The notes below the pieces were generated by a model. The model did not search any database, was not told where the DNA came from, and saw only the letters and a list, made by a program, of their open reading frames with translations. Below are positions 1,764-18,584 of a stretch of DNA of 40,136 nucleotides, piece by piece. Position 1 is the stretch's first letter. Each line of letters begins with the position of its first letter. This stretch comes from a virus. Taxonomy: Duplodnaviria; Caudoviricetes. The stretch spans positions 1 to 40,136 of the IMG/VR virus record IMGVR_UViG_3300020151_001402. The stretch is one strand, 5' to 3'. A program made the position numbers and the translations under genes.

Positions 1764-1829
1764 AGTATTTACCATTATACCACTTCATAAAATTAATTTT
1801 TATAATATTTTATAAAAAATATCAAAAGT

Positions 1830-1859
1830 TTGACTTTGCAGGGAAAAACATGTTATACT
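1830..1859 (+). promoter_or_regulatory. sigma-A-type promoter for the lysozyme-like gene
   Basis: TTGACT-N18-TATACT, then a 5' hairpin TGCTACC-AACA-GGTAGCA (1867-1884) and an AGGAGG RBS. Confidence 0.6.
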
Positions 1860-1907
1860 TGGTTTATGCTACCAACAGGTAGCAATTGTACTCTAGGAGG
1901 TATTATT

Positions 1908-2453
1908 ATGAGAAGAGACAAAATGGCTTGGATTGGAATCCTGTCTTTAGTTGGAGTTATTACGCCAGTAAGCAACTCTGCTAATGCCGAAACTACTAAA
2001 AATAATTTACTAACGAAACAGGCTCAAAGCCTTGATGCCACCCCAAAGGTGGCTTTTGTTGTTTCTAAAGCAAAAATGTTAGAAAAGTATGAGAATAAAA
2101 CACATCTTACAGATAGAGAATTAAAAGAACTTCTTAGTCTAGTTGGCTTTAAGGGCAAGGACCTAGTTGTTGCTTGGGCAGTTGCTAAGAAGGAGTCTAA
2201 TGGGCGACCACTGGCTTTTAATGGCAATCACAAGACTGGTGACTCATCCTATGGAATGTTCCAAATTAATATGATTGATCAACTGGGTCCAGACCGTAGA
2301 AAGAAGTTTGATCTTGAGTCTAATGCTGAGTTGTTTAATCCCGTAAAAAATGCTGAGATTGCTCACTACATGTCCCAAGGTGGAGATGATTGGTCTTCTT
2401 GGAAGGGCATTACTCCAAGAACTAAGTTTTGGATGAGCAAGTTTCCAGACTAA
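1908..2453 (+). CDS. secreted lysozyme-like / lytic transglycosylase-domain protein
   Basis: N-terminal hydrophobic signal segment. Catalytic-type 'AVAKKESNG' and 'SYGMFQINM' motifs, 'NPVKNA', 'WSSW'. AGGAGG precedes ATG 1908. Confidence 0.8.
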   Translation: MRRDKMAWIGILSLVGVITPVSNSANAETTKNNLLTKQAQSLDATPKVAFVVSKAKMLEKYENKTHLTDRELKELLSLVGFKGKDLVVAWAVAKKESNGRPLAFNGNHKTGDSSYGMFQINMIDQLGPDRRKKFDLESNAELFNPVKNAEIAHYMSQGGDDWSSWKGITPRTKFWMSKFPD

Positions 2454-3166
2454 GTTTCTAGATTATAAAATATATCTTTAGTCTCATATATTTCAGAATC
2501 TATACTGCTTATTGAATAAATGTAATTTTTTTCTTTATCTGTTAATTCGTTATATATAAATTCAGATTCTAAACTTCTATAATGTTCACGATTATAAAGA
2601 TTTTGTTTTATATTATCATGATTAATGTTTAAATCAAATAAAATCTTTTTTTGTATTTTATCAATATTGTTTTCTGATAAATCTTCTGGTTTAAGTATTA
2701 AAGATATTTTATTTATTCTATTAAATACATCTTCTTTTGTAAATGAATTCATTTTTGAAAAAGTTAAATAAAAAGATTCTTCTTTTTTAATTGTTGTGCT
2801 TATAATATTTTTAGATTGATAATTTCTTAATGTTTTTTTATTTTTTTCAAACCATAAAAAAAAATCTTTTTTAGTTATTCCAGATATAGGAGAATTTATT
2901 TTTTGACCATTACTGTCTGTGGTAACTCCATGAACATATAAACTTATTACTTGCTTACAAGGATCTCTAAATAATGTTGTTATATATGTTAAATTATCTA
3001 AATCATCTCTCCATTGAGAATGATCGCCTGAATTAATTCTATTATCTAAATATTCAATATTTGAATCTTTTAATATTTTTTTTAATGGCAATAAAAAGTT
3101 ATAAACATATAAACGACCAGCAGTTTTTTGAATATGTAAAAAATAGAAACTATTAAAAGTATTCAT
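2450..3166 (-). CDS. sulfotransferase-family protein
   Basis: 'FLHIQKTAG' (5'-PSB-like) and 'LFRDP...IS.Y' (3'-PB-like) motifs. Confidence 0.7.
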   Translation of the reverse strand: MNTFNSFYFLHIQKTAGRLYVYNFLLPLKKILKDSNIEYLDNRINSGDHSQWRDDLDNLTYITTLFRDPCKQVISLYVHGVTTDSNGQKINSPISGITKKDFFLWFEKNKKTLRNYQSKNIISTTIKKEESFYLTFSKMNSFTKEDVFNRINKISLILKPEDLSENNIDKIQKKILFDLNINHDNIKQNLYNREHYRSLESEFIYNELTDKEKNYIYSISSIDSEIYETKDIFYNLET

Positions 3167-3183
3167 TTTATTTTTATATTATA

Positions 3184-3852
3184 TCATGCAAATTTACTGC
3201 TAAAAATATGATTAAGTTCTATATGGTTTATATTCATATGAAAAGGTAGCGAACCTATCCAAAAAATTGTGTTTGCCATATCTTCTGCAGTCAATGCATT
3301 ATCCTTTTTTTCTACTTGAGTATCTATTGTTCCTGGACAGATTTCACTCACTTTAATTCCATACTCTGGAAACTCCATTCTCATTGTATCTATTAAGGCC
3401 ATTTCTCCTCTTTTTGCATTGCTATAATTTCCACCACCTCTAAAAGGAATCTTGCCACAAAGTGATGTTATAAATATAATTGTAGGCGATTCAGATTTTT
3501 TTAGACATGGGACAAAAAGTTGTGACAGATACATTGGTCCAGAAACATTAATATCGTAAGCCCTTCTAAAGTTATCCATTGTTTCATTGATAATCTGTGT
3601 TGGACTAGATCCTCCGCCAGCATTATTAACAAGAAGGTCTAGGGTAATATCCTTATATACTTCATAAAATTTTTTAATTTCACTAGATTGCGTAATGTCC
3701 ATCTGGTAAACTTCTACATTTTTTGAAACTAGTTTAGAGACTTTAGATAAATTTCTTGATACAGCAATAACTTTATATCCATTTTCAGATAAAAGTTTTA
3801 CGGTTGCATAGCCAACACCTTTGCTTGCCCCTGTAACAATTGCTGTTTTCAT
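3184..3852 (-). CDS. short-chain dehydrogenase/reductase (YdfG-like, NADP-type)
   Basis: TGASKGVG glycine motif, NNAG and YSNAK catalytic motif. Confidence 0.9.
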   Translation of the reverse strand: MKTAIVTGASKGVGYATVKLLSENGYKVIAVSRNLSKVSKLVSKNVEVYQMDITQSSEIKKFYEVYKDITLDLLVNNAGGGSSPTQIINETMDNFRRAYDINVSGPMYLSQLFVPCLKKSESPTIIFITSLCGKIPFRGGGNYSNAKRGEMALIDTMRMEFPEYGIKVSEICPGTIDTQVEKKDNALTAEDMANTIFWIGSLPFHMNINHIELNHIFSSKFA

Positions 3853-4562
3853 TAATAGTTTTCTTTATTTTTATTAAATTCTAAATGATTATGTATCCAA
3901 TGTCCTGGAACCATGTATTTAAAACCAGTTTTTACTAGATGTGCAGTATGATGATATGGCGCAGAAGAAGGAAAGATAATGATGCTTCCTGCTTTGGGTT
4001 TAACAGCAAAGTCTATGCTATCGCCTTTTATTGCTTTTTCATAATCTGCATGAGGCGTAAGTCTCTTTTTATTTAAAATGCCATCATAATCTGACAAAGT
4101 AAATGATATTTCTCCACCATCAAAATCATCATTTAGATACATAACTAAAGAATATCTTAAAGTTTTGTCTCCATCTAGTTGATCAAAATGTGCTCCCATT
4201 GAAGAGCCAACTTTATATTTTTTAATATTAAAAGTTGGAAAAAGATTTGGTGTATCAGGATCACCTAAAGAAGAAGCATAGTCTTTACATACATCATAAA
4301 AAGAATCTTGGATGGTATTGTAAATAAAAGCCATTTTTGTTTTAAAAGGCTCTTCCATTTGTTTAATTTTTTCTATATCAAAACTTTTAGTAGAACCATA
4401 TATAAAACTTTTATCGTTGGAAGAGGTCCAGTTAGTCCAAGAAGAGTCTCCGCTAATTGCTTCTAGCATATCCAACTCATCAATGGTTTGCATTAACTTG
4501 TCAAAGTATTTTACCCCATCTTCATAGTAATAAACTTTTTCTTCTAGTATTTGCTTATTCAT
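3852..4562 (-). CDS. 2OG-Fe(II) oxygenase, prolyl-4-hydroxylase-like
   Basis: HFD...YLNDDFDGGE...H..HLV..GFKY. Confidence 0.85.
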   Translation of the reverse strand: MNKQILEEKVYYYEDGVKYFDKLMQTIDELDMLEAISGDSSWTNWTSSNDKSFIYGSTKSFDIEKIKQMEEPFKTKMAFIYNTIQDSFYDVCKDYASSLGDPDTPNLFPTFNIKKYKVGSSMGAHFDQLDGDKTLRYSLVMYLNDDFDGGEISFTLSDYDGILNKKRLTPHADYEKAIKGDSIDFAVKPKAGSIIIFPSSAPYHHTAHLVKTGFKYMVPGHWIHNHLEFNKNKENY

Positions 4563-4574
4563 TTTTATCCTTTT

Positions 4575-5234
4575 CTAGTAATTGTTATTTTTATAAAAAT
4601 CTTTTGTTTTTACAAAACCAACTATAACATACCTTATTGGTCCTGGGCCTACTGCCCTAACTCCATGCTCAAACTCAGCCGTCCCTGGGAAAACAACTAA
4701 GGATCCTGCCTCAGGCTTTAGTTCTAAGTCTTTATTTACAAAAAATAGTTCTCCATTAGAATACTCATCATTTAAATAAATGATTGTAGCAAATTCAATT
4801 GCTGGATCTGTATGCTGGTCAGTGTGAGCCTTTAGTTCTACGCCTTCTTGCATTCTTTGAAGAGTTTTTGCTGATGCAAATTGACTATCTGGTTTTGCAG
4901 TTAGTAGTATTTTTTGTAGTCTTTGATTGATTTTATCACTTATTGGATATTTTATTAAACTAAGATTTTTGTCTTGCCATCCTTTAGTAATTTCAAACTT
5001 ACCCTCTTTTACTAAATTTTCAACATCATCTCTTTTAAATTTTTCCATGCAAAATCGTTTTAGGTTTGTTGTATATTCTATTAGCCAATCCTCTTCTGGC
5101 GTTAAATTAATAATATCAAACAATTGTGATAATTCTTCTTTAGAGAGAAAATTATTTACTACTATAACATCATCAATAATTTCATTGACAATAAAGTTTT
5201 TATCTTCAAATATTTGCTTAAGTTGTTTTATCAT
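4575..5234 (-). CDS. 2OG-Fe(II) oxygenase, prolyl-4-hydroxylase-like
   Basis: HTD...YLNDEYSNGE...HGVRAV..GPIRY. Confidence 0.85.
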   Translation of the reverse strand: MIKQLKQIFEDKNFIVNEIIDDVIVVNNFLSKEELSQLFDIINLTPEEDWLIEYTTNLKRFCMEKFKRDDVENLVKEGKFEITKGWQDKNLSLIKYPISDKINQRLQKILLTAKPDSQFASAKTLQRMQEGVELKAHTDQHTDPAIEFATIIYLNDEYSNGELFFVNKDLELKPEAGSLVVFPGTAEFEHGVRAVGPGPIRYVIVGFVKTKDFYKNNNY

Positions 5235-5998
5235 TTTTTCTCTTCTTCTATTTTGTACTTAACACCCATTTTATTAATCTTATATCCTTGCTTTAATAAA
5301 TTCTGCCACTCTTCTTTTTCAATTTTTTGCTTATCTCTAATTGCTTGCATTTCTTCTTTCCACTGGTCTCTTAATTCTTGTGGGTAATCTGATTCTTCTC
5401 TATCATCCCAGAAAGATCCTATTGTGTATCTAACACCTTTAGTTATGAGAGTTACCTCATGCATGTTATTAAATCCCCCATCAAATACAGCAAGCATTCC
5501 TATTTGTGGTTTAATTTCTATATTTTGTTTTGGAAATTTAAGAAGTCCACCTTCAAAGTCATCGTTTAGATATAGAAATCCAGCATATCTGCTTCTTGTA
5601 AATGCTCCAGATTTTCCGTGTTCATCTGTGTTGTCAGAATGTAATCTTGCAAAGGCTCCTGGCTCCCACTTTTGTGTATGGTATCCAATTTTAGAAATTA
5701 TGTCTGGGTCAAGATCATGGACTGAGGCAATTGCTTCTGGCATTTTATTTTCAATATCTGAAAAAATAGTTGGAGGTAGTCCTGCATCAATAATTTCTTG
5801 ATCTTTGTCTTTTGGAAGTACAGAAGAATATGACTCATAAAAAGATATAGGCATCCAAGACATTTTTCCATTTTCTGCTTGTGCATCTAATGCCTGAATC
5901 ATTTTGGCACAGGTTTCATTATCAATAAAGTTTTCATAAACAACTATGTCTTTTGTTATTCTTTTTTTATTGTTTAAATTCATTTTATTTTTTCCCAT
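5231..5998 (-). CDS. 2OG-Fe(II) oxygenase, prolyl-4-hydroxylase-like
   Basis: HSD...YLNDDFEGG...HEVTLITKGVRY. Confidence 0.85.
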   Translation of the reverse strand: MGKNKMNLNNKKRITKDIVVYENFIDNETCAKMIQALDAQAENGKMSWMPISFYESYSSVLPKDKDQEIIDAGLPPTIFSDIENKMPEAIASVHDLDPDIISKIGYHTQKWEPGAFARLHSDNTDEHGKSGAFTRSRYAGFLYLNDDFEGGLLKFPKQNIEIKPQIGMLAVFDGGFNNMHEVTLITKGVRYTIGSFWDDREESDYPQELRDQWKEEMQAIRDKQKIEKEEWQNLLKQGYKINKMGVKYKIEEEKK

Positions 5999-6704
5999 CT
6001 AAAAGAATTCTATAGTATTTTTCATTAGAATCTGGTTGTCTAGTTCCTGTATGCTTTAAAATTTTCCAGAAAAATGGACAAGTATATCTAATGCCATTTT
6101 TAATTTCAGTTACTCCATGAACATAGTTCATATCTCCTGGGAAGAAATAGGCAGCACCTCTTTTGGGCTTAAACTGAATATCTTGTAATGGAAAATATAG
6201 TTCTCCACCCTCATAATCATCATTTAGATAAAACAAACTTGCAATGTCATAATATGGAAAATCGTTTGGAGTTCCCGCATCATTGCCTTCATGTAACTCT
6301 TTATCTGCATGCGGATTTTGAAATTGGCCTGGAAGCCATCTAACAATTGTCTCTCCTGTAGGAGAAATGCTAACATCAAAAAAGTTTTCAATAATAGGCT
6401 TTAGTCTTTCATATAATCCTCTAATCACTGAACTTATCTCAGAATTATTTTTATCTAAAGATCTGGTTGTTGCAACCCTATCTTTCCAGTATTCGGAATC
6501 ATATGTGACTGTTCCATTTTCATTCATATGGCTTTCTGTTACATCCCAAATTGTAATATTTTTAGCAGCATTTTCTAGGAAATTTATCTCATCCTCAGTC
6601 ATAAAATTTTCAATCTCAACAATATTTTCTTTTCCAAAACCAAAAAACCCCGATGGAGTTTCGGAAGATGTTCTTTGAACTACTTTTACATTCTCTATAG
6701 ACAT
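5985..6704 (-). CDS. 2OG-Fe(II) oxygenase, prolyl-4-hydroxylase-like
   Basis: HAD...YLNDDYEGGE...HGVTEIKNGIRY. Has its own leaderless extended -10 (TGATACAAT) 6 nt upstream. Confidence 0.85.
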   Translation of the reverse strand: MSIENVKVVQRTSSETPSGFFGFGKENIVEIENFMTEDEINFLENAAKNITIWDVTESHMNENGTVTYDSEYWKDRVATTRSLDKNNSEISSVIRGLYERLKPIIENFFDVSISPTGETIVRWLPGQFQNPHADKELHEGNDAGTPNDFPYYDIASLFYLNDDYEGGELYFPLQDIQFKPKRGAAYFFPGDMNYVHGVTEIKNGIRYTCPFFWKILKHTGTRQPDSNEKYYRILLDGKK

Positions 6705-6716
6705 ATTATTATTGTA

Positions 6717-7424
6717 TCACTCTCTTTGATCTTTTACTATAAAGTTTAAAACCTTTGCTTCGTGACTACCTATTTTTTCATTTTTTTCATTAACAGCATT
6801 TCTATAAAAATCTGCCCACTTACCAGATTTGCTTATCTCAGCAGAGGCTGCTCCATATGACTGTATCGCATTTCTTCTTTTGTGATCTGGGTCACTATAG
6901 TCTATAAGTTCTATAGTGGAGTTATTCATCATTGTTAATGATAAAGGAATTAATGTTGCAACTGGATCCCCCGCTTTAATAGTAATTTCTTTATTTGGAA
7001 CTTTTGCTCTAATAGCAAGTGGCAATGGAAAGTCAAAAAAAGAAGTGCTTATTACAGAAGATATAGTTTCAAAATCAGCATTAAAGTAGTTAACTGGATT
7101 AATTGCAAACATACTAATGTTTTCATCAGTACGAAATGTTAATTCAGTATAAAAACTAACACTGGCTTGACCTCTACCAGTATAACAAAAATCTTTTCCT
7201 TTTAATACCTCTACAGTTGTGTCTGTCGTATCTACGGTGCCATTCCAAATAAAACTTATGTCCTCAGTAAATGATATATTCCACCCAATAGTATTAGCCT
7301 GTGTAACTGGGAAACACCTATATGCATGTTTTTCTGCTGTTACATCAGCCCAATCTCTTTTAATGGATGTTGGAGAAAGAACTGCCTTTGATTGCTGCCC
7401 CTGCTCTACTTTAATGTTAATCAT
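6717..7424 (-). CDS. DUF6065-like protein
   Basis: 'RDWAD....HAYRCFPVTQANTIGW' N-terminal motif, recognised from memory of the family. Confidence 0.6.
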   Translation of the reverse strand: MINIKVEQGQQSKAVLSPTSIKRDWADVTAEKHAYRCFPVTQANTIGWNISFTEDISFIWNGTVDTTDTTVEVLKGKDFCYTGRGQASVSFYTELTFRTDENISMFAINPVNYFNADFETISSVISTSFFDFPLPLAIRAKVPNKEITIKAGDPVATLIPLSLTMMNNSTIELIDYSDPDHKRRNAIQSYGAASAEISKSGKWADFYRNAVNEKNEKIGSHEAKVLNFIVKDQRE

Positions 7425-7451
7425 ATTTTGAGTCCCTATATTTACAATAAC

Positions 7452-8141
7452 TTAATGATCTTCGTGACTACGGTCTGTGTAATCTGTCATAATAACTACG
7501 GCATACTTAGTTCCTGAAAAAATTTCAAGAGATGAATGTTCGTAGACAAAATTAGACGGGCATATAATAATATCTCCAGCATCTGGCTTAACAGTTAAAC
7601 CATGTCTTGTAAACTGAATTTCTCCACCCTCATAGTCATCATTAAGATAGGCTACTGCTGAAATTGTGCAATTGTAGTATGGTCCATGATCAGCATGAAC
7701 CTTAAAATATTCTCCTGGCATATATTTTACAAAGTTAAAGGCTTCTTTATAGTTCATTTTTAAATTCCATTTGCTTTCATAATGATTTAAGCAAATATCT
7801 AGACTTTTATCTACACTATCATGTATATCAGAAAGTCCCTGATTAAAAGGAATATGTACACCCAAATTCTTTTTCTTATACTTTAAGTCAAAACAATTTC
7901 TGACTTCTTGGACTTCTTCTTTTCCATTAACATGTGCTCCATGCCAAGAAATTTCTGGGATACCCAAAGAAATCTCATGCTCTAGGGTATTTATAATTTT
8001 TAGACATTCGTCTTTTTTGATAGCATTTTTATAAAGGTTAATGCCGTAATCCAAATTAATGACAGTAACACCGTCTTGAATTAATTCATCTTGCAATCTT
8101 TTTGTAGTTGTTTCTTCTCTTGGAAGTTGTGTCCAATTCAT
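7452..8141 (-). CDS. 2OG-Fe(II) oxygenase, prolyl-4-hydroxylase-like
   Basis: HAD...YLNDDYEGGE...HSSLEIFSGTKY. Confidence 0.85.
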   Translation of the reverse strand: MNWTQLPREETTTKRLQDELIQDGVTVINLDYGINLYKNAIKKDECLKIINTLEHEISLGIPEISWHGAHVNGKEEVQEVRNCFDLKYKKKNLGVHIPFNQGLSDIHDSVDKSLDICLNHYESKWNLKMNYKEAFNFVKYMPGEYFKVHADHGPYYNCTISAVAYLNDDYEGGEIQFTRHGLTVKPDAGDIIICPSNFVYEHSSLEIFSGTKYAVVIMTDYTDRSHEDH

Positions 8142-8869
8142 TATTCATATCTCCTTGGTTGCCATACTTTATTTTTATATATTCCGCCATCGGGAACACG
8201 ATATTTGGCAGAGTTTTCTATATTTTTTTTATGCATATTCATCCCATCCTCAATCCTTACTTCAGACTCCCAGTCTTCTCTTTTAAATGGTAGCATCTGT
8301 GCATAAGGTGTTCCTGCTGGAATAACCCCTTCAAAACCCTTGATTAAAAAGAATGGCATAGATCCTGGCAGTTTAACATTATCGTTATCAATTATACCAG
8401 AGGTAGTCAAAAATGGTAATTCAAAGCGATTAAAAGGTTGAGAATAAAGAACGCTATACCCCTTTGGAGTTTCTACTGCCCAATCTGGAAACCAAGCAAA
8501 GTGATTTGTATAATATCCCTGAGGATGTTCAAATTGAGGCATTCCTCCTCTTGGGGTACAAAAATCTTTATACTTTTCATCTTCTATTATTGCAGAAACA
8601 GTGTATTCATCTTGTTTAACAAATTTAATATCACAAGGTGTTTTTAGTGTGTAGCCTGTGCCCATAATATCAAATATTGCTGGACATGCTTTCCAAGTTG
8701 GAACTTTGCCCCCATCTGGACCTTTCCAAAATTCACCCTCTGGATTTTTAGCAAATCTATCTGCTTTTCTATACCATTCTGGAATTGTTTTAATGATTGG
8801 TAAAGGTCTAGAATTGCTTTCTTCTGTTAACCAAGGTCTATTAGAAACAAAAGATATTATATTTTTCAT
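8141..8869 (-). CDS. phage hypothetical protein, distantly DUF6065-like
   Basis: 'IPEWYRK...TWKACPAIFDIMGTGY...SGIIDND...IPAGTPYAQMLPFKRE'. Same C-P and G-x-P layout as 6717-7424. Confidence 0.55.
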   Translation of the reverse strand: MKNIISFVSNRPWLTEESNSRPLPIIKTIPEWYRKADRFAKNPEGEFWKGPDGGKVPTWKACPAIFDIMGTGYTLKTPCDIKFVKQDEYTVSAIIEDEKYKDFCTPRGGMPQFEHPQGYYTNHFAWFPDWAVETPKGYSVLYSQPFNRFELPFLTTSGIIDNDNVKLPGSMPFFLIKGFEGVIPAGTPYAQMLPFKREDWESEVRIEDGMNMHKKNIENSAKYRVPDGGIYKNKVWQPRRYE

Positions 8870-9525
8870 GACCCTGTTTCTGCGTAAAATTCTGGTTTAT
8901 GATACTTATCACTATAGTCAAGCATGGTAACCAAAGAGTATTTTGTTCCAGACTCTACTGGCATTGCTCTATGTGGATACATATAGTTTGACGGGAAGAT
9001 TACTACATCCCCAGCCTTTGGGGTATACATAATATCCTGCTGGCTAAAATGTAAGCCACCACCTTCGTAGTCGTCATTTAGATAGGCAACTAGAGATACG
9101 GTACAGTTATAAGAAAATCCATGATCATGATGATATTGGAAGTGTTGTCCTTTTTCATATCTGATAAAGTTAAATGCTTCCCAATATCTTAGTTCATAAA
9201 TATTAAAAACTCCACAATAATGTTCTACAGCAAGTTTTTGTTTTTCATAGCAATCATCCCAAACTTTTCCTAATTCAATAGATTCTTTTGAACCATCATT
9301 ATTAAGTTCATTTCTTTTATATTTAAAATCTACACAATCTCTATAATCAGGCATTAACTGCTGATATCCAACATATGCAGGTTGCCACTGATATGCAGGA
9401 TTATTTTTTAAAGAAGACTCCACTCTTTCTGGAATATTTAGTTCTCTTGGAAGAACATTGCTATAAACATATATTCCATTTCCCAAGTCTTTAAAAGTTA
9501 TACCGCTTTGTTCTAACATGTTCAT
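8866..9525 (-). CDS. 2OG-Fe(II) oxygenase, prolyl-4-hydroxylase-like
   Basis: HHD...YLNDDYEGG...HRAMPVESGTKY. Close paralogue of 7452-8141 (EAFNF..Y, YNCT.S.VAYLNDDYEGG). Confidence 0.85.
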   Translation of the reverse strand: MNMLEQSGITFKDLGNGIYVYSNVLPRELNIPERVESSLKNNPAYQWQPAYVGYQQLMPDYRDCVDFKYKRNELNNDGSKESIELGKVWDDCYEKQKLAVEHYCGVFNIYELRYWEAFNFIRYEKGQHFQYHHDHGFSYNCTVSLVAYLNDDYEGGGLHFSQQDIMYTPKAGDVVIFPSNYMYPHRAMPVESGTKYSLVTMLDYSDKYHKPEFYAETGS

Positions 9526-9534
9526 ATCTATCTC

Positions 9535-10593
9535 CTATATTCTACTTTTAGATTCTTTAATTGATTCTGAAGAAACTTTAATAAACCTACACTCTTTTTT
9601 AAAAATTTCTATATTTTCAGATCCACAGTATGATAAAGCACTTTTTAAACTATCTGATATTGCCAACAACTGCTTCCTAACTGGACCTTTATCTGCAATA
9701 TAAGCAGAAACCCCTTCAATGTGGTGAATATCTGTATCTTCTAGCGTGTGATCAATCTGACTTAATTTTATGCTTTCGGAGGCTAATCCACGAAATAGAA
9801 TCTGTCCATTTTTTTGTTTTTCACATTCTGAATACCCTGCAAACATATTTCCCATCATTACGGCGCTGGCACCAGCAGCAAGTGATTTTACAATATCTCC
9901 AGTTTCTCTAATTCCTCCGTCTAAGACTATTCCATTAATGTTGTCATTTTGTACATTGTTGTATATATCTATAACAGATCCTAAAACTGGAACTCCAAAA
10001 CCAGTTACTACTCTAGTAGTACATGCTGCTCCAGCACCTATTCCAACCCTAACAGAGTCTGCTCCTGCATCCATCAAATTTTTATATGCTTCATAAGAAG
10101 AAACATTTCCAGACATAATGTGAATATTGTTTGGTATTTGTGATCTTAAAATTTTTATAGAATCAACTACCTTTTGCAAATGTGCAAAAGCCGTATCAAC
10201 TAGCAAAACTTTTATTCCATACGAAAGTATTTTGTTTACAAATATGGAATCTTCTGTTTCTTTAAGATTTAAAACAAAGCCAACTCTGTCTGATTTTTTA
10301 ATATATTCGGGTAATGCTTTAAATTGATCAAGTCTTTTTTGCTCATTCTGTTGCCTATGAATAAAAGCCATTCCCCCATGACTAATAATTTTTTCGATCA
10401 TTAAATTGCTATTAATAAATTCCATTGGGGCTGTCATAATAGGCATATCTAGGGTTATCCATGCTTCTGGATTATTTGGATTACCAAATTTAGTGCGTAT
10501 AGAAATATCTTCTCTTGTTTCAACAGATGAGTGTCTTGGAACAAGTAGAATATCATCAAAACATAATGGGGTAATTGCTAAATCTTCTTTCAC
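9535..10593 (-). CDS. IMP dehydrogenase / GMP reductase family protein (no CBS insert)
   Basis: FDDILLVPR, PIMTAPM, GNV, GADSVRVGIGAGAACTTR, DGGIR..GDIVKSLAAGASAVMMG. Confidence 0.85.
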   Translation of the reverse strand: MKEDLAITPLCFDDILLVPRHSSVETREDISIRTKFGNPNNPEAWITLDMPIMTAPMEFINSNLMIEKIISHGGMAFIHRQQNEQKRLDQFKALPEYIKKSDRVGFVLNLKETEDSIFVNKILSYGIKVLLVDTAFAHLQKVVDSIKILRSQIPNNIHIMSGNVSSYEAYKNLMDAGADSVRVGIGAGAACTTRVVTGFGVPVLGSVIDIYNNVQNDNINGIVLDGGIRETGDIVKSLAAGASAVMMGNMFAGYSECEKQKNGQILFRGLASESIKLSQIDHTLEDTDIHHIEGVSAYIADKGPVRKQLLAISDSLKSALSYCGSENIEIFKKECRFIKVSSESIKESKSRI

Positions 10594-10599
10594 AGTATT

Positions 10600-11280
10600 C
10601 TACCCTTCTATTATTTCTAAGGCTACTGCATTTTCAGTATAACCAATATAATTATACCTCAACGAGTTTGATAAAGCAAACTCTTGAAAGGCTTTGTATT
10701 CGTGGTTTCTCCAGTTTGGATAACCAAAATATTCATCAAATATAATTATTGATCCAGGCTTTATCAAATTAGATATAGCGTTTAGCACATAAGATGTTGG
10801 ATCATAAAGATCTGAATCCATATGAATTAAATCTATGCCCTTTTCTATTTTAACATCTTTAATAAAATTTGGTACTGTATTTTCATATAAACCATTATAA
10901 ATAATAACATTTTTATTTACTTCTGGCTGTATTCCATTTAAATTAAAAGCACCTTTTCTTGCATTAAACCAATTTTCTTCAAGTCCTAAAAAAGAGTCAA
11001 ACCCATACAAAGATGCGTTAGGTAGTTCATTTGCAAAAAAATTAATTGACTCTCCTTGCCAAACTCCAAACTCTGCCACTATGATATTGTTTTTATTTTT
11101 TATTAAATTACAACAATATTTTCTTAGATCTTCTCTTTTTAAAAACATTGATGCATTATTCATTTTTTCAATAGCATAGTTAGCAGAGTCTAGAGCAGCA
11201 TGTTCTAAGACTTTATAAATTACTCCAGGGAAATTGCCTATTCCAAATTGCCCTGCAGCGGTTGTTTCGTCTATTGACAT
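10600..11280 (-). CDS. TylF/MycF-like SAM-dependent O-methyltransferase
   Basis: EFGVWQGES, GFDSF.GL.E, HMDSDLY, IIFDEY. Confidence 0.8.
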   Translation of the reverse strand: MSIDETTAAGQFGIGNFPGVIYKVLEHAALDSANYAIEKMNNASMFLKREDLRKYCCNLIKNKNNIIVAEFGVWQGESINFFANELPNASLYGFDSFLGLEENWFNARKGAFNLNGIQPEVNKNVIIYNGLYENTVPNFIKDVKIEKGIDLIHMDSDLYDPTSYVLNAISNLIKPGSIIIFDEYFGYPNWRNHEYKAFQEFALSNSLRYNYIGYTENAVALEIIEG

Positions 11281-11293
11281 TTAACTATTTTGT

Positions 11294-11764
11294 TTAGTCT
11301 TGAAGTGATTTCCAGGGATTAGGCGGAAGTTTTAGACTAGACTCAAGGAACCAAGTCCACTCTTGATGATTTGCCAAAATCTCTGATAGAGATTGAACCA
11401 AAGCAAACTCTTTTGCAAGGATTGCCTCATCAATAACTGACTTTAACTGTTCAATCATTTTATTATTAATAGGAAGTAAGTGTATTGCCATTTCAACACC
11501 GCAATAAGTGTCTGGCTTGACATTGCCAAGTGTTTGGTTTTTAGAAAACTCCTCTAGAGTATATGGAGCCTCTCCGCCTAAGCGTCTTAGCCATGTAGAC
11601 ACACTAAGAGTATCTTTGTCTGACTTTGTATAGATATCTTCATATACAATTCTAGACTGTCTCATAAGCACAGACTCTGTATTTAGAAAAAACCCTTTTA
11701 CTAGGTTTGAATAAACTACAAGATTTGCCTGTAGCCCTTGCAGTGACTTAATTATTTCTTTCAT
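11294..11764 (-). CDS. Dps/ferritin-like protein with degenerate ferroxidase site
   Basis: 156 aa helical protein. 'YEDIY', 'LRRLGGEAPYTLEEF' and 'HQEWTWFLESSL' align with Dps, but the HW/H/D/E ligands appear substituted. Confidence 0.6.
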   Translation of the reverse strand: MKEIIKSLQGLQANLVVYSNLVKGFFLNTESVLMRQSRIVYEDIYTKSDKDTLSVSTWLRRLGGEAPYTLEEFSKNQTLGNVKPDTYCGVEMAIHLLPINNKMIEQLKSVIDEAILAKEFALVQSLSEILANHQEWTWFLESSLKLPPNPWKSLQD

Positions 11765-11785
11765 ATTTCCCCCATTTATTTTATA

Positions 11786-12355
11786 TTATATTACAAAAAG
11801 ATCTTCAAAAACAACATCTTCTGTTATTTCTAAAAATGTTTTTAACTTTGAAGTAATCTCTGGATCTGCAACATCAATCTGTAAGAAATTTTCTTTTCCT
11901 TCAAAAAAGTTAGAAATAGCAGAATCGTGAGAATTATATATATTGACTAGTTCCTCTTCTGTCAAATCTTCCATTTTTGTTTTGCCAGTTGCTTCATAAA
12001 TGTTGCAAAACAACTCTTCAAAGATGAGTGGTGATTCATGATCAAAATGACTTTGTGCATTCTTCATAGACTCTAGCCAAGAGTCTAGATCCTTTTTAAT
12101 ATAAACAAATTTAGTAGTTAGATAATTGCTATAGACGTGCTCATAACCAAAGCAATGTGGCAAATCTACAAGTGCATTATAATTAATATATTGGTCATCA
12201 ATATATTGATTAACGCCTTCTAGAGATTCTGGGTATTCGCCAACAGACAAGTTGTCGTAATCATAAAAATATGATGTAGTTATGTCGGCACTCTGTAAAA
12301 AGGTTGCAAAGCCTTTTCCTCCGCTTAAATTTAGACCCAATGATAATATGTTCAT
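11786..12355 (-). CDS. P-loop sulfotransferase-like protein (degenerate)
   Basis: 'ILSLGLNLSGG', 'ALVDLP', 'KFVYIKKDLDSWLES', 'YNSHDSAISNFF' follow the Sulfotransfer_4 layout. Leaderless start (TGATATAAT + 6 nt). Confidence 0.55.
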   Translation of the reverse strand: MNILSLGLNLSGGKGFATFLQSADITTSYFYDYDNLSVGEYPESLEGVNQYIDDQYINYNALVDLPHCFGYEHVYSNYLTTKFVYIKKDLDSWLESMKNAQSHFDHESPLIFEELFCNIYEATGKTKMEDLTEEELVNIYNSHDSAISNFFEGKENFLQIDVADPEITSKLKTFLEITEDVVFEDLFVI

Positions 12356-12451
12356 GTCTTTATTATATCACGCTTTTCTGCTTGATCAGAATCTTCTTTT
12401 CTTTCATTTCCAGGGCCTACATGGTCAGCGCAACCGCACATCCAGCACATA

Positions 12452-13453
12452 CTAGTCACCCCATATGGCTGCAGAGCATTTTCTACACATTGTAGAGTAT
12501 GACTCTTCCACCATATCGCTTCTTTCTTTGCTGTTCCAAATATCTTTTAATGATTTATTGTTTATATTTCCATATATAGTCTTAAAATCAAAATCAGCAC
12601 AGCAGATAAAAAGATCTCCATTTGGGTTGATATGTATCCATTCGTTTGTTCTACTTCTTGTTCCTATCCCGCCATTACAGCCAATTACCTTGCTTCCTTT
12701 AGGCTTTAAATATTTTTCAATTGCTGGAGCCTGATCAATAATCTTAAAATCACTTAGGTGCCCTGCTCTGTCATATAAATGATATGACTCATAAATATTT
12801 AATCCTGGAAAAATATTATTAAAGTTTTGAATATCTTTTGCTAGTGTGCCATTTTGATTGTCTAAATCTATTGCTGGTGCATTTTCAAGAAGGTCTAGCC
12901 ATCCTCCATTTTTTAATAAAGACTTCTCGTTTACACCATTTACCATCAATACCATGTTTCCACTTTTTTTAAGTTCTGGTAGATTTTCCATAGCATATAA
13001 AACATTGTTAACTACTTTATCAAACAGTTTTTCGTTCATTTTTACATACTCTGACCATCTTTTTGATTCAGATGCTGGTATGTTTAGTAATATGCCATCT
13101 ACAACATCTAGATATTTTGATATTATGTCAACCTTTTCTTTTTTAAACGCTACTCCGTTTGTTAATATAAAGGTTTTAAAATTATACTTTCTATATAGTT
13201 TGAGCATTTCTTCAAAATTTTTATAAAGCAATATTTCATTATAATTTGCAGAGTATATAGTTTTAATATCAGGATCTACAAAATCTCCCATGCCTTGTCT
13301 AAGTTGACTAAATACATTTTCTAATTCAGATAGTTCCATATCTCTGATTGCAGATTTTGGATTTCCTTCATATGAAACGGGACAGAACCAGCATCCAGCA
13401 TTACATAAGCCATTCACATCTATCTGTATTGCTTTAATTGTGTACTTATTCAC
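12452..13453 (-). CDS. radical SAM enzyme with SPASM/twitch domain
   Basis: CNAGCWFC (CxxxCxxC). C-terminal C...GDLFICC...GN......IW....CRKC. Confidence 0.9.
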   Translation of the reverse strand: MNKYTIKAIQIDVNGLCNAGCWFCPVSYEGNPKSAIRDMELSELENVFSQLRQGMGDFVDPDIKTIYSANYNEILLYKNFEEMLKLYRKYNFKTFILTNGVAFKKEKVDIISKYLDVVDGILLNIPASESKRWSEYVKMNEKLFDKVVNNVLYAMENLPELKKSGNMVLMVNGVNEKSLLKNGGWLDLLENAPAIDLDNQNGTLAKDIQNFNNIFPGLNIYESYHLYDRAGHLSDFKIIDQAPAIEKYLKPKGSKVIGCNGGIGTRSRTNEWIHINPNGDLFICCADFDFKTIYGNINNKSLKDIWNSKERSDMVEESYSTMCRKCSAAIWGD

Positions 13454-13468
13454 TGCTCCCCCTAAAAA

Positions 13469-14113
13469 TTATTTATATACTATTGCTTGGCCTGTTGGTA
13501 ATTCTAAAATATTATCTTTTCCAAAAAAATCTATCATTGCTTTTCTTGCTCCTATAGTATTATATGATCCATAATCATCACATATTAATACTCCACCACT
13601 TATTAACTTAGGCCAAAAATATTCTATTGATTCTTTAGTTGGTTCATAAAGATCAACATCAATATTGACGTAAGAATATTCTAAATCCTCGATCTCTTTA
13701 AAAACATCTGGAATCCAGCCTTTATGTAAATTAATATTTGAATACTTTGTTAATGACTTTTGTGCATACTCAAAAGGAATGTCTAGTTTTTTTGTTTTAA
13801 AGAAATCAGTATCAAACTCTCCTGGCTCTGAAACACCTTCCCAGGAGTCGATGCCGATAAAGTTTTTATCACAGAATTCTGCAACAAAATACATAGACAT
13901 GCCAGCAAATACACCACATTCTGCAAAATTACTATTTTTATGTGATTGTTGTTTTGCCAACTGTCTAAGAATATAAAGTCTTGACATAAAAGCACCTTGG
14001 ACTAAAGGAGTATCGTAATTCCTACCTAAAGCATCAACATGAATTTTAGAAAACTCTTCGTTAATATTTAAAAAGGACTGATCCTCTTCTTGCCTATTTG
14101 TGTACGTATCCAT
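13469..14113 (-). CDS. TylF/MycF-like SAM-dependent O-methyltransferase
   Basis: ECGVFAGMS, DSWEG, KGWIP, IDVDLYEPT, GGVLICDDY. Probable ATG at 14113, just after the upstream stop. Confidence 0.8.
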   Translation of the reverse strand: MDTYTNRQEEDQSFLNINEEFSKIHVDALGRNYDTPLVQGAFMSRLYILRQLAKQQSHKNSNFAECGVFAGMSMYFVAEFCDKNFIGIDSWEGVSEPGEFDTDFFKTKKLDIPFEYAQKSLTKYSNINLHKGWIPDVFKEIEDLEYSYVNIDVDLYEPTKESIEYFWPKLISGGVLICDDYGSYNTIGARKAMIDFFGKDNILELPTGQAIVYK

Positions 14114-14115
14114 TA

Positions 14116-15045
14116 TTAGGCAATTGTCAGATAATTTCCGACTATATACCACTTAAACGGAGTTGTTCTAATATCATAGACATTTACAGAATCAAGCAAC
14201 TCAATAGTTTCTACTACTGTATAAGTAATTTGTCCATTTTCAGGATCAACATTAACTACATAGTCTCCAACAATAACGTCTCCTGAATATTTAACTACAA
14301 TGTTGTCATTGTCTTTAACAAAGACTGGGTGTGTAGGAGCAAACATAGTTTCTGAACCATTAAGTTTAACAAGAGAATTTTCTCTTATTGTGTTTGACAA
14401 CACTTCGGTTTCAACAAATGTAACATTATCTTTAATTGTTGCATCAACAAATGTTACATAGTTTGTTAGATCAAGGGGATTAACTGTAACTAGTTTATCT
14501 CCAATCTTAATATCTTTTGCTGATACATAACCATTTGAAGTCAAAACTTGTGCATTTTCTGCAATACAACCCTTGCCCTTAAATGCTGGTGGGAAGAACG
14601 GGAAGTATGGGAATGCTGGTGGGAAGAACGGGAAGAACGGTGGGAAGAATGGACCGAACCCTGGGAAGAATGGGAAGTAAGGTGGGAAGAATGGGAAAAA
14701 TGGAGGAAAGAACGGTGGGAAGAACGGAGGAGCAACTGGGGTAACAGAGTTGGAAGCAGCAGAGTTACCTGATGTTAAGACACCATTGCTAACTCGAACG
14801 GTAAATGTATATGCAGTTCCATTAGTTAAGCCTGTTACTGAAATTGGTGATGTTGCACCAGTTCCTGTAAGGTTTCCAGGAGATGATGTAACTGTATAGG
14901 TATTAGTTCCTGTGCCTTTTCCTAAAGAGGCTGGTGCAGAAAAAGTAACAGATGCTGACGCATTGCCAGCCGTTGCAGTGCCAATAGTTGGAGTATCTGG
15001 TAGACGACCATCGCCTGATGTAACAATACCTTTAATGCTGCTCAT
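14116..15045 (-). CDS. FN3 domain + Pro/Phe repeat + C-terminal Hint domain protein (copy B)
   Basis: FN3 'VTGLTNGTAYTFTV'; 50-aa PPFF repeat; Hint block A 'CIAENAQVLT..G....DIKIGD', block B 'PTHPVF', block F 'VYDI'. Ends YLTIA, with no His-Asn. Confidence 0.85.
   Translation of the reverse strand: MSSIKGIVTSGDGRLPDTPTIGTATAGNASASVTFSAPASLGKGTGTNTYTVTSSPGNLTGTGATSPISVTGLTNGTAYTFTVRVSNGVLTSGNSAASNSVTPVAPPFFPPFFPPFFPFFPPYFPFFPGFGPFFPPFFPFFPPAFPYFPFFPPAFKGKGCIAENAQVLTSNGYVSAKDIKIGDKLVTVNPLDLTNYVTFVDATIKDNVTFVETEVLSNTIRENSLVKLNGSETMFAPTHPVFVKDNDNIVVKYSGDVIVGDYVVNVDPENGQITYTVVETIELLDSVNVYDIRTTPFKWYIVGNYLTIA
14581..14730 (-). repeat. coding repeat (PPFF/PFF/PYF)n, 50 aa
   Basis: PPFFPPFFPPFFPFFPPYFPFFPGFGPFFPPFFPFFPPAFPYFPFFPPAF, with mixed synonymous codons. 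Confidence 0.95.
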
Positions 15046-15075
15046 ATTTCACCTCTTGATTATTATACCATTAAT

Positions 15076-15990
15076 TTAAGCAATAGTTAGATAATTTCCA
15101 ACTATATACCATTTAAATGGGGTAGTTCTAATGTCATAGATATTGCCAGTATCCATTAATTGTATAAATTCTACCATAGTATATCTAACATTTCCGCTGT
15201 CAGTGTCAATGTCTACTAGATAGTCTCCTAGCGCAATATCTCCTGAATTCTTAATAGCAATGCCTTCATTATTTTTAATAAACATTGGATGGTTTAAAGA
15301 AAATAGGCTCTCTGTTTTATTAAATCTAATTAGGCTTTCTTGGCCTGAAGCAATAGTTATAATTTCAGTTTCAACAAACGACACAGTTTCATTTATTGTG
15401 GCATCGACAAATGTTACATAATTAGTTAGATCAGATGGACTAACTGTTAAAAGTTTATCTCCAACCTTAAGATCTTTTGCCACAACATAGCCATTTGAAG
15501 TCAAAACCTTAGCATCTTCATGTAGACATTTTACTGCTGGCTTAAAGTAAGGTGGGAAGAACGGGAAGTATGGGAAATAAGGAGGGAAGAATGGGAAAAA
15601 TGGAGGAAAGAATGGAAAGTAAGGAAAGTATGGAGGAAAGAATGGTGGAAAGAATGGGGGAACAACTGGAGTAATAGAATTAGATGCACTAGAAGCATCA
15701 GATACTGCAATTACAGTATTGCTGGCTGTTCTTGTTGATGCTGTTACTGTAAAAGTATATGCTGTGCCATTTGTAAGTCCTGTAACTGTAATTGGACTTG
15801 TGGTGCTTGTTCCAGTTTTAGCACCAGGATTAGAAGTTGCTGTATATAAATTATTATTTCCTGGTTTTCCTAGATATGTTGGAACACTAAAAGGAACAGA
15901 TGCCTGCTGATTACCCGCAACGGCAGTTCCAATAATTGGTGCTGATGGCTTACGTCCATCACTTGATGAAGTGACCCCCACTATTGGCAT
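15076..15990 (-). CDS. FN3 domain + Pro/Phe repeat + C-terminal Hint domain protein (copy A)
   Basis: Tandem paralogue: FN3, 39-aa PF repeat, 'CLHEDAKVLT', 'LNHPMF', 'IYDIRTTPFKWYIVGNYLTIA'. Confidence 0.85.
   Translation of the reverse strand: MPIVGVTSSSDGRKPSAPIIGTAVAGNQQASVPFSVPTYLGKPGNNNLYTATSNPGAKTGTSTTSPITVTGLTNGTAYTFTVTASTRTASNTVIAVSDASSASNSITPVVPPFFPPFFPPYFPYFPFFPPFFPFFPPYFPYFPFFPPYFKPAVKCLHEDAKVLTSNGYVVAKDLKVGDKLLTVSPSDLTNYVTFVDATINETVSFVETEIITIASGQESLIRFNKTESLFSLNHPMFIKNNEGIAIKNSGDIALGDYLVDIDTDSGNVRYTMVEFIQLMDTGNIYDIRTTPFKWYIVGNYLTIA
15544..15660 (-). repeat. coding repeat (PPFF/PYF)n, 39 aa
   Basis: PPFFPPFFPPYFPYFPFFPPFFPFFPPYFPYFPFFPPYF. Confidence 0.95.
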
Positions 15991-15991
15991 G

Positions 15992-16861
15992 TTACACCAA
16001 GTCTCCAGAAAGAACCCAAGAGTTAGTTCCTATTTTTAATAAAGTGGCCATTGATCCTGCTGCACGCAAATTACTTCCTGGAGTTACATATGAAGTAATT
16101 CCTACAGTAAAGGCAACTGAAACTCCTGTAGTTAGCGCTACCAAATGTATTTGTGCTCCTATTGGATAAGCAACAGAAGAATTAAGAGGAACCGTAAAAG
16201 CAAAAGCACCATTCATTTGTATTAGAGTATTTTGGTCATCAAGAACAAGTGTGTATGCTGCTGTTTTTGCAGTTGCATTAACAGTAAATGATGGAACGCT
16301 GACAGTTGTTGATCCATTACCAGTTTGCAAAACCTTGTTTGTTGTATCCCAAGAAAGTCTTCCATTGGCTGTTGAAGAAGATGTAGACAATGTTAGCGCT
16401 GGAGTGTTTACTGTTGGAGATGTTAATGTCAAGCCTGCAATTGTTGTAACTGTAGCACCAGAAGCAATTGAAGTAGATCCAATAGTTGGAGCAGAGTAAG
16501 AGTTGTCTGTTCCCCACTCAAGACCTGAGGCTGTTGCTGAGTTAGCCTTTAGGACTGTTCCATTTGCTCCAACAGGTAAAACTGCTAAAGTATCATTTGC
16601 TGATGCGCTAAGAAGGTCTCCCTTAGCAGCAAAGTCTGTTTTTAGTATTGCTGCAGACAAATCGACATTTCCAATTTGCTCTTGCAATGCATTGATTGTA
16701 TAGGCTATTGATGGGTTGATTAGATTATCTGGATCAGTTTCTGATGTATCAAAAGTGTATGAGCCATAATGATATGCTCGTAGTGCAGCCTGAATATCCG
16801 CTGGATCTGAAAGACCTGGGATTTTTGTTGGAACTAACGTTCCTATTGATTCTACTGCCAT
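15992..16861 (-). CDS. tail fibre-like virion protein
   Basis: 'AKGDLL.A...T...LPVGANGTVLKANSATASGL.W' and C-terminal 'YTLVLDD...YPIGAQI...WVLSGDL' fibre-type motifs. Confidence 0.65.
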   Translation of the reverse strand: MAVESIGTLVPTKIPGLSDPADIQAALRAYHYGSYTFDTSETDPDNLINPSIAYTINALQEQIGNVDLSAAILKTDFAAKGDLLSASANDTLAVLPVGANGTVLKANSATASGLEWGTDNSYSAPTIGSTSIASGATVTTIAGLTLTSPTVNTPALTLSTSSSTANGRLSWDTTNKVLQTGNGSTTVSVPSFTVNATAKTAAYTLVLDDQNTLIQMNGAFAFTVPLNSSVAYPIGAQIHLVALTTGVSVAFTVGITSYVTPGSNLRAAGSMATLLKIGTNSWVLSGDLV

Positions 16862-16893
16862 AGTTTCACCTCATCAAAATTATACCATAGTTA

Positions 16894-17475
16894 TTAGACT
16901 ATTGATATAAATAGATGTACCGTTACTGTTTGGTTTAACAATGACCAGTCTTCATAAGGTCCTGAATCTACGTTTGATCTAAATTCTACTGCAGAAAGGT
17001 TAATTACTAAATTTGTTCCTCCCCCAGCAAGAGCGGGGATAGTCATAGCAGATGCTAGCGGCTTGCTATATGCAATACTATACTGAACATTAAAGTTAGC
17101 AGAAGTTAAAGGAGTTCCAGTGACAGAAACTATGTTTGTTATTGGAATTGTAATTGATGCTGCACCAGAACTAAAGTTAACTGTATGAAGTTTTGAGTAT
17201 AAAACTGGGCTTACCTTTAATACTTGAACCCAAAGGTTTGCACCAGGCTCTGCTACATATTGATAAAGGTATCCATAGTCTAAACCTTGAGCAGCATTTA
17301 TATATAAATCGTTTAACTTTATTTCTTGTCCTATTTCGATACTGTTAGGATCTCCAAGGCCTACAAAAACCTTGCTACCTCGTTCTCCTGTAGGACCAAT
17401 ATCAACCAAGACCTCAATAATTTCTGGAGGACCTAAAACGGTTATGTCATCATTGCTAACTAACACATCAGGCAT
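16894..17475 (-). CDS. probable virion structural protein
   Basis: 193 aa with 'GPTGERGS..FVG.GDP', in the structural operon. Confidence 0.55.
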   Translation of the reverse strand: MPDVLVSNDDITVLGPPEIIEVLVDIGPTGERGSKVFVGLGDPNSIEIGQEIKLNDLYINAAQGLDYGYLYQYVAEPGANLWVQVLKVSPVLYSKLHTVNFSSGAASITIPITNIVSVTGTPLTSANFNVQYSIAYSKPLASAMTIPALAGGGTNLVINLSAVEFRSNVDSGPYEDWSLLNQTVTVHLFISIV

Positions 17476-17831: not shown

Positions 17832-17857
17832 AAAAATCCTCCTGCTTTATTATACCA

Positions 17858-18583: not shown

Positions 18584-18584
18584 G

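Follow-up and report, generated by a model that had tools for sequence, protein, structure and literature searches.

A tandem array of 2-oxoglutarate (2OG)- and Fe(II)-dependent oxygenases, together with a dUTPase-fold gene whose product has a conserved cysteine, has been described in the Synechococcus phage Syn9 (Iyer et al. 2010, PMC2938197), and the accessible portion of the same study proposes collagen-like or tail-collar substrates for other, bacterial operons. According to the available text of PMC3634087, the prolyl 4-hydroxylase (P4H) of PBCV-1 (vCPH, PDB 5c5t) acts on -Pro-Ala-Pro-Lys- repeats, and the accessible part of PMC12032242 describes the gp38 protein of T2/T6-type phages as a monomeric fibre-tip adhesin with a polyglycine sandwich. 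Here we describe a phage gene cassette found in a stretch of 40,136 nucleotides (the window), which is IMG/VR record IMGVR_UViG_3300020151_001402 (Duplodnaviria; Caudoviricetes), a linear virus record that is 37% complete. The conserved unit consists of a fibre gene, an FN3-(Pro/Phe)n gene (present in the window as two copies, PF1 and PF2), the oxygenases OX1 to OX6, two DUF6065-type proteins (DUFa and DUFb) and often an SDR, all labels with numbers or letters having been coined in the present analysis; it is smaller than the system proposed by a first-pass annotation of the window. We consider it probable, from the gene sequences and a structural model, that the cassette's own Fe(II)/2OG oxygenases carry out a context-specific hydroxylation of a polymer at the tip of the virion fibre.

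The cassette resembles the Syn9 array in that both combine several non-identical tandem dioxygenases with a dUTPase-fold protein that has a conserved Cys. They differ in that Syn9 carries a JmjC (MINA-like) protein and tryptophan halogenases, neither of which has a Pfam match among the 30 genes of positions 136-19998 of the window, and in that small metabolites are proposed for Syn9, whose accessible description, the basis of our comparison, names no Pro-rich substrate, whereas here a co-encoded protein polymer tracks the enzymes. The first-pass annotation knew of no description of such a layout, which holds for the substrate, absent from that accessible account, and not for the array with its dUTPase-fold gene, already published for Syn9. 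PBCV-1 offers the likeness of a viral P4H-fold enzyme and Pro-rich viral repeats, and 5c5t is itself among the fold matches of OX1; however, it is a eukaryotic virus with a single enzyme, whereas the present phages have a battery of orthogroups, an aromatic-rich repeat, operon linkage and enzyme-to-motif coupling. As with T2/T6/S16-type gp38, the gene lies directly after the fibre gene, in a slot that is glycine-rich (PF21722) in related phages; here it encodes FN3 domains and a Pro/Phe polymer, and the likeness is one of gene position, with a putative attachment to the fibre. By the features tested, the cassette is comparable in its predicted working to a viral prolyl-hydroxylase/repeat pair, and is neither a cluster for ribosomally synthesized and post-translationally modified peptides (RiPPs) nor a splicing intein. 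Our literature search, outside of which most subscription papers lie, found no paper on DUF6065 or on a phage repeat of the PPFFPPFF type, and none that joins a phage Hint domain, a proline-rich region, fibronectin and a hydroxylase (the gene-neighbourhood supplements of Iyer 2010 lie outside this search); the accessible parts of PMC10611076 and PMC10202952 do not mention proline repeats.

Linkage of the repeat genes to the oxygenases

The two repeats of the window comprise 44 and 54 residues, mostly Pro, Phe and Tyr, in frame between the FN3 and Hint domains. The PF1 repeat (15660-15529) contains 6 Pro-Pro, 5 lone-Pro and 6 Phe-Phe units and is followed by the Hint Cys1 at 15528, and the PF2 repeat (14730-14569) contains 7, 5 and 9 such units, with Cys1 at 14568. 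Their previous description as (PPFF)n was correct in the Pro/aromatic composition; the repeats are, however, not pure, as Pro-Pro units are mixed with lone-Pro units. Synonymous codons are mixed in both repeats, and shuffled proteins reach such a run in 1/2000 cases. A wrong reading frame was rejected, as was an assembly artefact, the latter because an independent contig (L080 in our numbering of loci) shows an identical order, with genes that are 70-97% identical.

A check of co-occurrence and synteny bears out the association between the repeat genes and the block of oxygenases and DUF6065 proteins. A repeat gene lies upstream in all 44 DUFa-anchored loci with 4.5 kb of upstream sequence (of 80 fetched) and in all 34 OX4-anchored loci with 7 kb upstream (of 80 fetched), and it is present in 72/72 loci of a further, OX1-anchored set. 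For the FN3-repeat anchor, a downstream stretch of 4 kb was available in 60 of 78 loci; 23 of these have repeat and cassette, 3 the repeat only, 1 the cassette only and 33 neither, and among FN3 homologues without a repeat the cassette is absent in 33/34. The repeat DNA motif led to 125 loci, from which 45 without flanks, 10 without a repeat open reading frame by our filter and 8 with less than 3 kb downstream were dropped; the 62 that remained have an oxygenase and a DUF protein within 7 kb in 44 cases, an oxygenase only in 2 and neither in 16. About 640 viral stretches hold OX4 relatives and about 1700 hold the repeat motif; a motif match on a 455-kb contig (L380), with no cassette and no FN3 context, is probably unrelated. 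In cultured phages, DUFb has no match, the Hint part has one weak match and OX1 has just distant cyanophage matches below 40% identity, so these searches found no cultured phage with the cassette.

The Hint domain, which had been regarded as the activating part of the system, is weak by Pfam (E about 0.005), and its family profile matches the bacterial intein-like (BIL) domain 2lwy (E 3.8e-8). It occurs in only 7/70 motif-anchored repeat proteins, counted with our own profile, which divergent copies may escape; many repeat proteins stop just past the repeat or carry a Cys-rich tail, and we therefore rejected it as a required activator. Short Cys-rich tails stand in place of Hint in L017, L032, L042, L098, L109, L155 and L327. 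The Hint motifs with recognised roles are Cys1, a His in block B and an Asp in block F. Among 69 distinct Hint tails, Cys1 is invariant (69/69), the block-B His is found in 9, including both window copies, and replaced, mostly by Gln, in 60, and a terminal His-Asn is present in 8, in neither window copy, the other 61 ending otherwise. With Cys1 at the junction, the block-B His and the block-F Asp, the window copies resemble BIL/Hedgehog-type Hint domains, and the pair of Cys1 and block-B His is that of Hint domains with N-terminal cleavage; the present family differs in its C-terminal position, in being optional and in the two replacements just counted. As the window copies have Cys1 and lack the terminal His-Asn, N-terminal cleavage only is predicted for them, and they show neither that ending nor the C-extein of an intein. 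The phages with Pro/Phe proteins also have another type of repeat, (Phe-Pro-Thr)n, which is capped by Hint and lies at the end of a 1000-residue protein (L010:1272-4337, L012, L087, L088, L095). Variant tails were also seen in L328, L350, L353, L369, L377, L540 and L547, as well as L612 and L623, among them tails with Pro-Pro-His-Phe and with Phe-Cys-Pro units; the His variants are often accompanied by extra unclassified oxygenases.

Coupling between oxygenases and repeat units

The coupling was first seen while tabulating cassettes, when those without OX2 turned out to have almost only Pro-Pro units. Under a strict score (at least one Pro with Phe or Tyr on both sides), the motif is present in 119/119 cassettes with OX2 and in 0/14 without it in the first set (133 distinct of 163 usable). 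Three later sets, obtained with the same profiles and thresholds and with OX1 genes of OX2-less cassettes as queries, were concordant in 36/36 (78 loci, 58 usable), 41/41 (80 loci, 58 usable) and 67/67 cases (137 loci, 117 usable). We left out loci in which OX1 or the repeat could not be seen, and those that lacked OX2 and had less than 2.5 kb downstream. Altogether, the 277 distinct cassettes comprise 233 with OX2 and motif, 44 with neither and 0 discordant cases, and 144 of them were examined after the rule had been stated. Over whole records, the best scores of 18 OX2 negatives are 175-221 bits, given by their own OX1, versus 375-385 bits in two positives, and three of the negatives are 100% complete genomes. 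In 19 distant cassettes with a single enzyme intermediate between OX1 and OX2, the tails are pure Pro-Pro. On the OX1 trees, OX2 and the motif each undergo 7 to 8 changes, and these coincide in position; separate OX2 losses were identified in L149, L136, L319, L102 and L155, each with the loss of every lone-Pro unit, and the supported independent pairs number 5, 5 and 4, all in one direction, although independent losses are possibly under-sampled. Sister pairs are L109 versus L155 and, as the closest, L151 (OX2, Pro-Tyr-Phe units) versus L136-141 (no OX2, Pro-Pro-Tyr-Phe units). Since the presence of OX2 matches that of a lone Pro between aromatics, the tail is the likely substrate of the oxygenases.

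A second coupling concerns OX3. Among 93 complete cassettes, 87 have OX3 and Phe-Phe, 4 neither, 2 Phe-Phe without OX3 and 0 OX3 without Phe-Phe; later sets gave 34 with both, 2 with neither and 1 with Phe-Phe only, and 52/52. The tails without Phe-Phe form one lineage, whose five records hold 1 or 2 PF13640 genes each.

These patterns bear on the possibility that the oxygenase genes are auxiliary metabolic ones, with small molecules or host proteins as targets, and are joined to the repeat only by common descent in a hotspot for morons. The cassettes are all related to one another, unrelated genes (IMPDH, Dps and peroxidase-like) are taken up at the same site, these phages have further oxygenases elsewhere that come without repeats, and the accessible text of Iyer et al. 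(PMC2938197) proposes small-metabolite synthesis for cyanophage arrays. Descent, however, leaves unexplained the separate OX2 losses that match the loss of the lone Pro and its retention in 233/233 cassettes with OX2, and the cassette keeps company with the repeat gene at differing genome positions, so that we regard the metabolic explanation as very unlikely. It is important to note that the coupling shows context dependence and not which residue reacts: the enzymes might act on the repeat by another chemistry, such as aromatic oxidation or cross-linking, or as folding partners that bind a given context. Phe makes up 40-50% of most repeats in the tabulated cassettes, and OX3-OX6 and DUFb are lost where Tyr-Phe stands in for Phe-Phe. 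The best fold matches of OX1, of which OX2 is a paralogue, are nevertheless prolyl 4-hydroxylases, and the metal triad does not vary; on balance we think such a chemistry unlikely.

Enzyme folds and the fibre slot

The alignment confirmed in all six oxygenases what had been seen at first, the HxD...H triad and the shared YLND(D/E)(Y/F)xxG, and added a basic 2OG-binding residue. The six form separate orthogroups with motifs of their own and a largely fixed order, the metal triad being conserved in each orthogroup; OX1 is found in 83/90 cassettes. The OX1 model (predicted local distance difference test, pLDDT, 95.7) has protein prolyl 4-hydroxylases as its top fold matches (E 1e-11 to 1e-9, TM about 0.6-0.67), namely the Pseudomonas P4H with EF-Tu, an algal P4H with (Ser-Pro)5, PHD2 and the viral vCPH. 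Linkage, the OX2-motif coupling and the fold of OX1 thus support the first-pass proposal that the Pro/aromatic repeats are substrates of the oxygenase and DUF6065 block.

DUFa has no Pfam match and shares phrog_7084 with DUFb. Its model (pLDDT 93.8) has a dUTPase/dCTP-deaminase fold (Z 8.8, rmsd 3.0, 126 residues aligned to 3t60), as do the first 19 of its matches, and DUFb has a weak dUTPase profile match (E 0.34). Of the five catalytic motifs of dUTPases, only a motif-3-like stretch aligns with DUFa in a comparison by eye, the glycine-rich C-terminal motif was not seen in the DUFa alignments, and the family keeps one Trp and one Cys. This fold could suggest that the targets of the oxygenases are DNA bases or nucleotides and that the dUTPase-fold proteins deal with the modified nucleotides; the block includes an IMPDH-like gene, and some PHROG matches are labelled DNA endonuclease. 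There is, however, no nucleic-acid oxygenase among the OX1 model matches listed, the genes lie in the fibre region, the coupling is to a protein motif and the C-terminal dUTPase motif was not seen in the alignments, all of which makes a role in nucleotide modification extremely unlikely.

Relatives of these proteins also occur elsewhere. In one search, 49/50 matched records were haloarchaeal viruses, and in Hafunaviridae haloviruses the DUFa relative (L156:5857-6741, L157:4860-5696) adjoins tail fibre/adhesin genes, on the opposite strand from the adhesin module and with its own promoter repeat. Three bacterial DUF6065 loci lie near surface proteins (L231:3406-6687, L233:5187-7735, L232:6977-14708). 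In a Sinorhizobium plasmid record, only 9 nt separate DUF6065 from a preceding autotransporter that contains about 31 prolines, in an Ochrobactrum plasmid record it follows a collagen-like protein, and in a Niveispirillum plasmid record it precedes a large repeat protein with no Pro tract in the part seen; DUF6065 therefore follows a Pro-rich or collagen-like surface protein in 2 of the 3 bacterial lineages inspected. No fused form of DUF6065 appeared among 7994 longer candidates, which is weak evidence, and the search for DUFb in prokaryotic genomes gave one spurious match of 19 residues.

The C-terminal 104 aa of the fibre protein, encoded at 16306-15995, match 221 phage records, 198 of them of Gordonia phages, the top-listed being annotated as minor tail protein; no clear solved relative of this domain was found. 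The product of the gene that comes next, at offsets of -4 to +50 nt, has a Pro/Phe repeat in 106 and is glycine-rich in 9 of 121 distinct cases, which were drawn from repeat-enriched loci. Three tested glycine-rich slot genes (L011, L016, L058) carry FN3 and PF21722, and Pfam detects no polyglycine II sandwich domain in PF1 and PF2. Given this slot after the fibre gene, and the FN3 and glycine-rich domain of the relatives, the Pro/Phe tail is a putative fibre-tip adhesin, in agreement with the virion-surface product suggested at first. WhiB, an actinophage marker in the accessible parts of PMC10202952 and PMC10611076, is encoded in 4/4 complete relatives, and the host is likely an actinobacterium; the phage is described as lake-type.

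In the context-specific hydroxylation that we favour, the FN3-Pro/Phe protein would dock on the fibre tip as an adhesin, and each oxygenase is predicted to read a different sequence context: OX1 would hydroxylate the Pro of Pro-Pro units and OX2 that of lone-Pro units, while OX3, OX4 and DUFb might serve Phe-Phe units, as the pattern in one lineage faintly suggests. The dUTPase-fold DUF6065 proteins may hold or present the Pro-rich chain, and the optional Hint cap would cut itself off at Cys1, leaving the same end as in Hint-less versions. A fuller code, in which OX3 and OX4 turn Phe-Phe into hydroxylated aromatics beside the assignments of OX1 and OX2, yielding a hydroxylated adhesive tip rod that replaces the receptor-binding domain, with DUF6065 as a polyproline-handling dUTPase-fold protein in bacteria too, and TylF perhaps capping hydroxyls, is a tentative extension that we put forward as possible and rather doubtful.

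Several observations weigh against the hydroxylation that we favour, which is predicted from genes and models. OX1 is the single one of the six oxygenases that was modelled, and six to thirteen oxygenases are seemingly a large number for a polymer of two residues. No annotated or detected oxygenase adjoins the three bacterial DUF6065 loci or the halovirus relatives of DUFa. One cassette (OX1 and a DUF protein after the fibre gene, L572) has no repeat gene in 16.6 kb, and L058 has a DUF protein and an oxygenase without a repeat. Conversely, 16/62 repeat genes lack a cassette in the adjoining 7 kb; 8 of these have DUFb elsewhere on the contig, the other 8 lie on 6-53% complete records, and several are long multi-domain fibre-type proteins, so that one cassette may serve several tails. 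With p values of 0.0625 (5 pairs) and 0.125 (4 pairs), the independent pairs stay below significance, and 29/44 OX2 negatives belong to one lineage. The Phe-Phe link is based on a single lineage, with one-way exceptions (Phe-Phe without OX3 in 2/93 and 1/37). Among 18 motifs, none is a clean partner for OX5, OX6 or the SDR.

Gene layout and the lineage-restricted insert

The genes of the block (Table 1) are all on the minus strand and closely spaced between 16861 and 2450, the gaps measuring -14 to 96 nt. Pfam identifies six PF13640 oxygenases, two TylF proteins, Radical_SAM with SPASM, Sulfotransfer_4, an SDR and one DUF6065. All genes listed by the first-pass annotation are present and co-oriented as it stated; it had left out the IMPDH-like and Dps-like genes. 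For TylF-A, a start at ATG 14113 is more probable.

Table 1. Features of the block, in gene order from the fibre gene
Feature	Position	Strand	Remarks
Fibre/minor tail gene	15992..16861	-	PHROG tail fibre matches; outside the span of the first-pass annotation; 1 nt gap to PF1
PF1: FN3 (aa 1-110) + Pro/Phe/Tyr repeat + Hint	15076..15990	-	Likely substrate
PF2: FN3 + repeat + Hint	14116..15045	-	Likely substrate
TylF-like methyltransferase A	13469..14113	-	PF05711, E 5e-12; lineage-restricted insert
Radical SAM/SPASM protein	12452..13453	-	Pfam; insert; elsewhere mostly away from Pro/Phe genes
Sulfotransferase-like protein	11786..12355	-	PF17784, E 2e-10; insert
Ferritin/Dps-like protein	11294..11764	-	PF00210; insert
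TylF-like methyltransferase B	10600..11280	-	Pfam TylF; only here and in nearest relative L080/L160
IMPDH/GMP-reductase-like gene	9535..10593	-	PF00478, E 7e-72; insert
OX1	8866..9525	-	Highest conservation among the oxygenases; Pro-Pro units as predicted target
DUFa, DUF6065-type	8141..8869	-	dUTPase/dCTP-deaminase fold (model); invariant Trp and Cys
OX2	7452..8141	-	OX1 paralogue, 39% identical; tracks lone Pro between aromatics
DUFb, DUF6065	6717..7424	-	PF19541, E 7e-28
OX3	5985..6704	-	PF13640; missing in one lineage without Phe-Phe in repeats
OX4	5231..5998	-	PF13640 oxygenase
OX5	4575..5234	-	Optional orthogroup, 25/93 complete cassettes
OX6	3852..4562	-	Optional orthogroup, 38/93 complete cassettes at score threshold used
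SDR	3184..3852	-	Closes cassette in some lineages; 20/34 OX4-anchored loci

One sub-lineage carries the TylF, radical SAM, sulfotransferase, Dps and IMPDH genes as a passenger insert. Their relatives occur in 0/62 repeat-anchored, 0/34 OX4-anchored and 1/44 DUFa-anchored loci, the single one being the nearest relative, L080, and we consequently rejected them as core members, although the first-pass annotation had counted the methyltransferases, the radical SAM protein and the sulfotransferase as part of the system. A repeat gene lies upstream in 6/71 radical SAM loci (3/53 among those with enough flank); most radical SAM relatives sit in a separate Dps-radical SAM-oxygenase block, Dps-like relatives elsewhere usually adjoin the radical SAM gene, and the latter is found in 2/4 complete genomes with a cassette, at a distance of tens of kb from it. 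A second sub-lineage (L180, L182-185) has the insert at the same site, accompanied by a pyridoxal phosphate (PLP) enzyme, and part of it is also found in L070 and L179; the insert enzymes may decorate the repeat locally. A separate recurrent block (L161-L189), located elsewhere in these phages, runs Dps, radical SAM/SPASM, oxygenases, an Asp/Asn beta-hydroxylase-like gene and a sulfotransferase-like gene.

The wider scheme of the first-pass annotation, in which Hint activates the repeat proteins and the whole block matures a RiPP-like decorated product, with collagen as a co-substrate, has some points in its favour: the insert is co-oriented between the repeat genes and the oxygenases in at least two sub-lineages (L080; L180, L182-185), the Hint Cys1 is invariant, and schemes of hydroxylation followed by sulfation or methylation are proposed for other operons in the accessible text of Iyer et al. 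(PMC2938197). Against it stand the rarity of the insert genes and of Hint, the presence of IMPDH and Dps in the same insert, and the collagen gene of the window, which has a homologue in 1/4 complete cassette-bearing genomes (low-complexity sequence may reduce sensitivity), is not needed and was rejected as main substrate. Clusters for RiPPs that use radical SAM/SPASM maturases share with the cassette a ribosomal repeat beside tailoring-type enzymes; they comprise a short leader-core precursor, a conserved maturase, a protease and an exporter, whereas here the repeat belongs to a folded FN3 structural protein of 300 aa and the SPASM gene lies outside the conserved unit. The radical SAM/SPASM protein of the window scores far below all NCBIfam maturase cut-offs, and no protease or transporter is found among the Pfam and NCBIfam matches of the block. 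With the repeat still fused to FN3 in a fibre-coupled gene, a RiPP-like small product found no support in this analysis, and the wider scheme as a whole is highly unlikely.

Other genes lie around the cassette. A 238-aa gene after the SDR (2450-3166, minus strand) has no Pfam, PHROG or NCBIfam match, and its homologue in L001 and L002 follows the repeat gene, with IMPDH, the oxygenases being missing there. A constant landmark beyond the cassette, encoded in the other direction (1830-2453, plus strand), is a lysozyme-like SLT_3 gene whose product has a signal-like N-terminus. The far end of the window (32336-33115, 38022-38717, 38774-39742, 39706-40134) carries glycosyltransferases, a Stealth-like gene and a sugar epimerase-like reading frame. 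A glutathione-peroxidase-like gene (34153-34968, plus strand) is distant from the cassette, and peroxidase-like genes lie within the oxygenase cassette of distant phages (L383:2779-3408, L316:2183-3648); the glutathione-peroxidase-like genes, and Dps here, may guard the Fe(II) enzymes against peroxide.

Aquatic phages very commonly carry 2OG-Fe(II) oxygenases, which tend to be classed as auxiliary metabolic genes with no substrate assigned. Our study provides a large family of them with a named candidate protein substrate and a prediction of which enzyme acts on which unit; with the enzyme-to-motif rule, two short peptides suffice to test a question of long standing. If the proposed hydroxylation is true, it would mean a heavy post-translational modification of a phage surface protein and prolyl hydroxylases with new context rules, and it would advise caution against reading such oxygenase genes as host metabolism.

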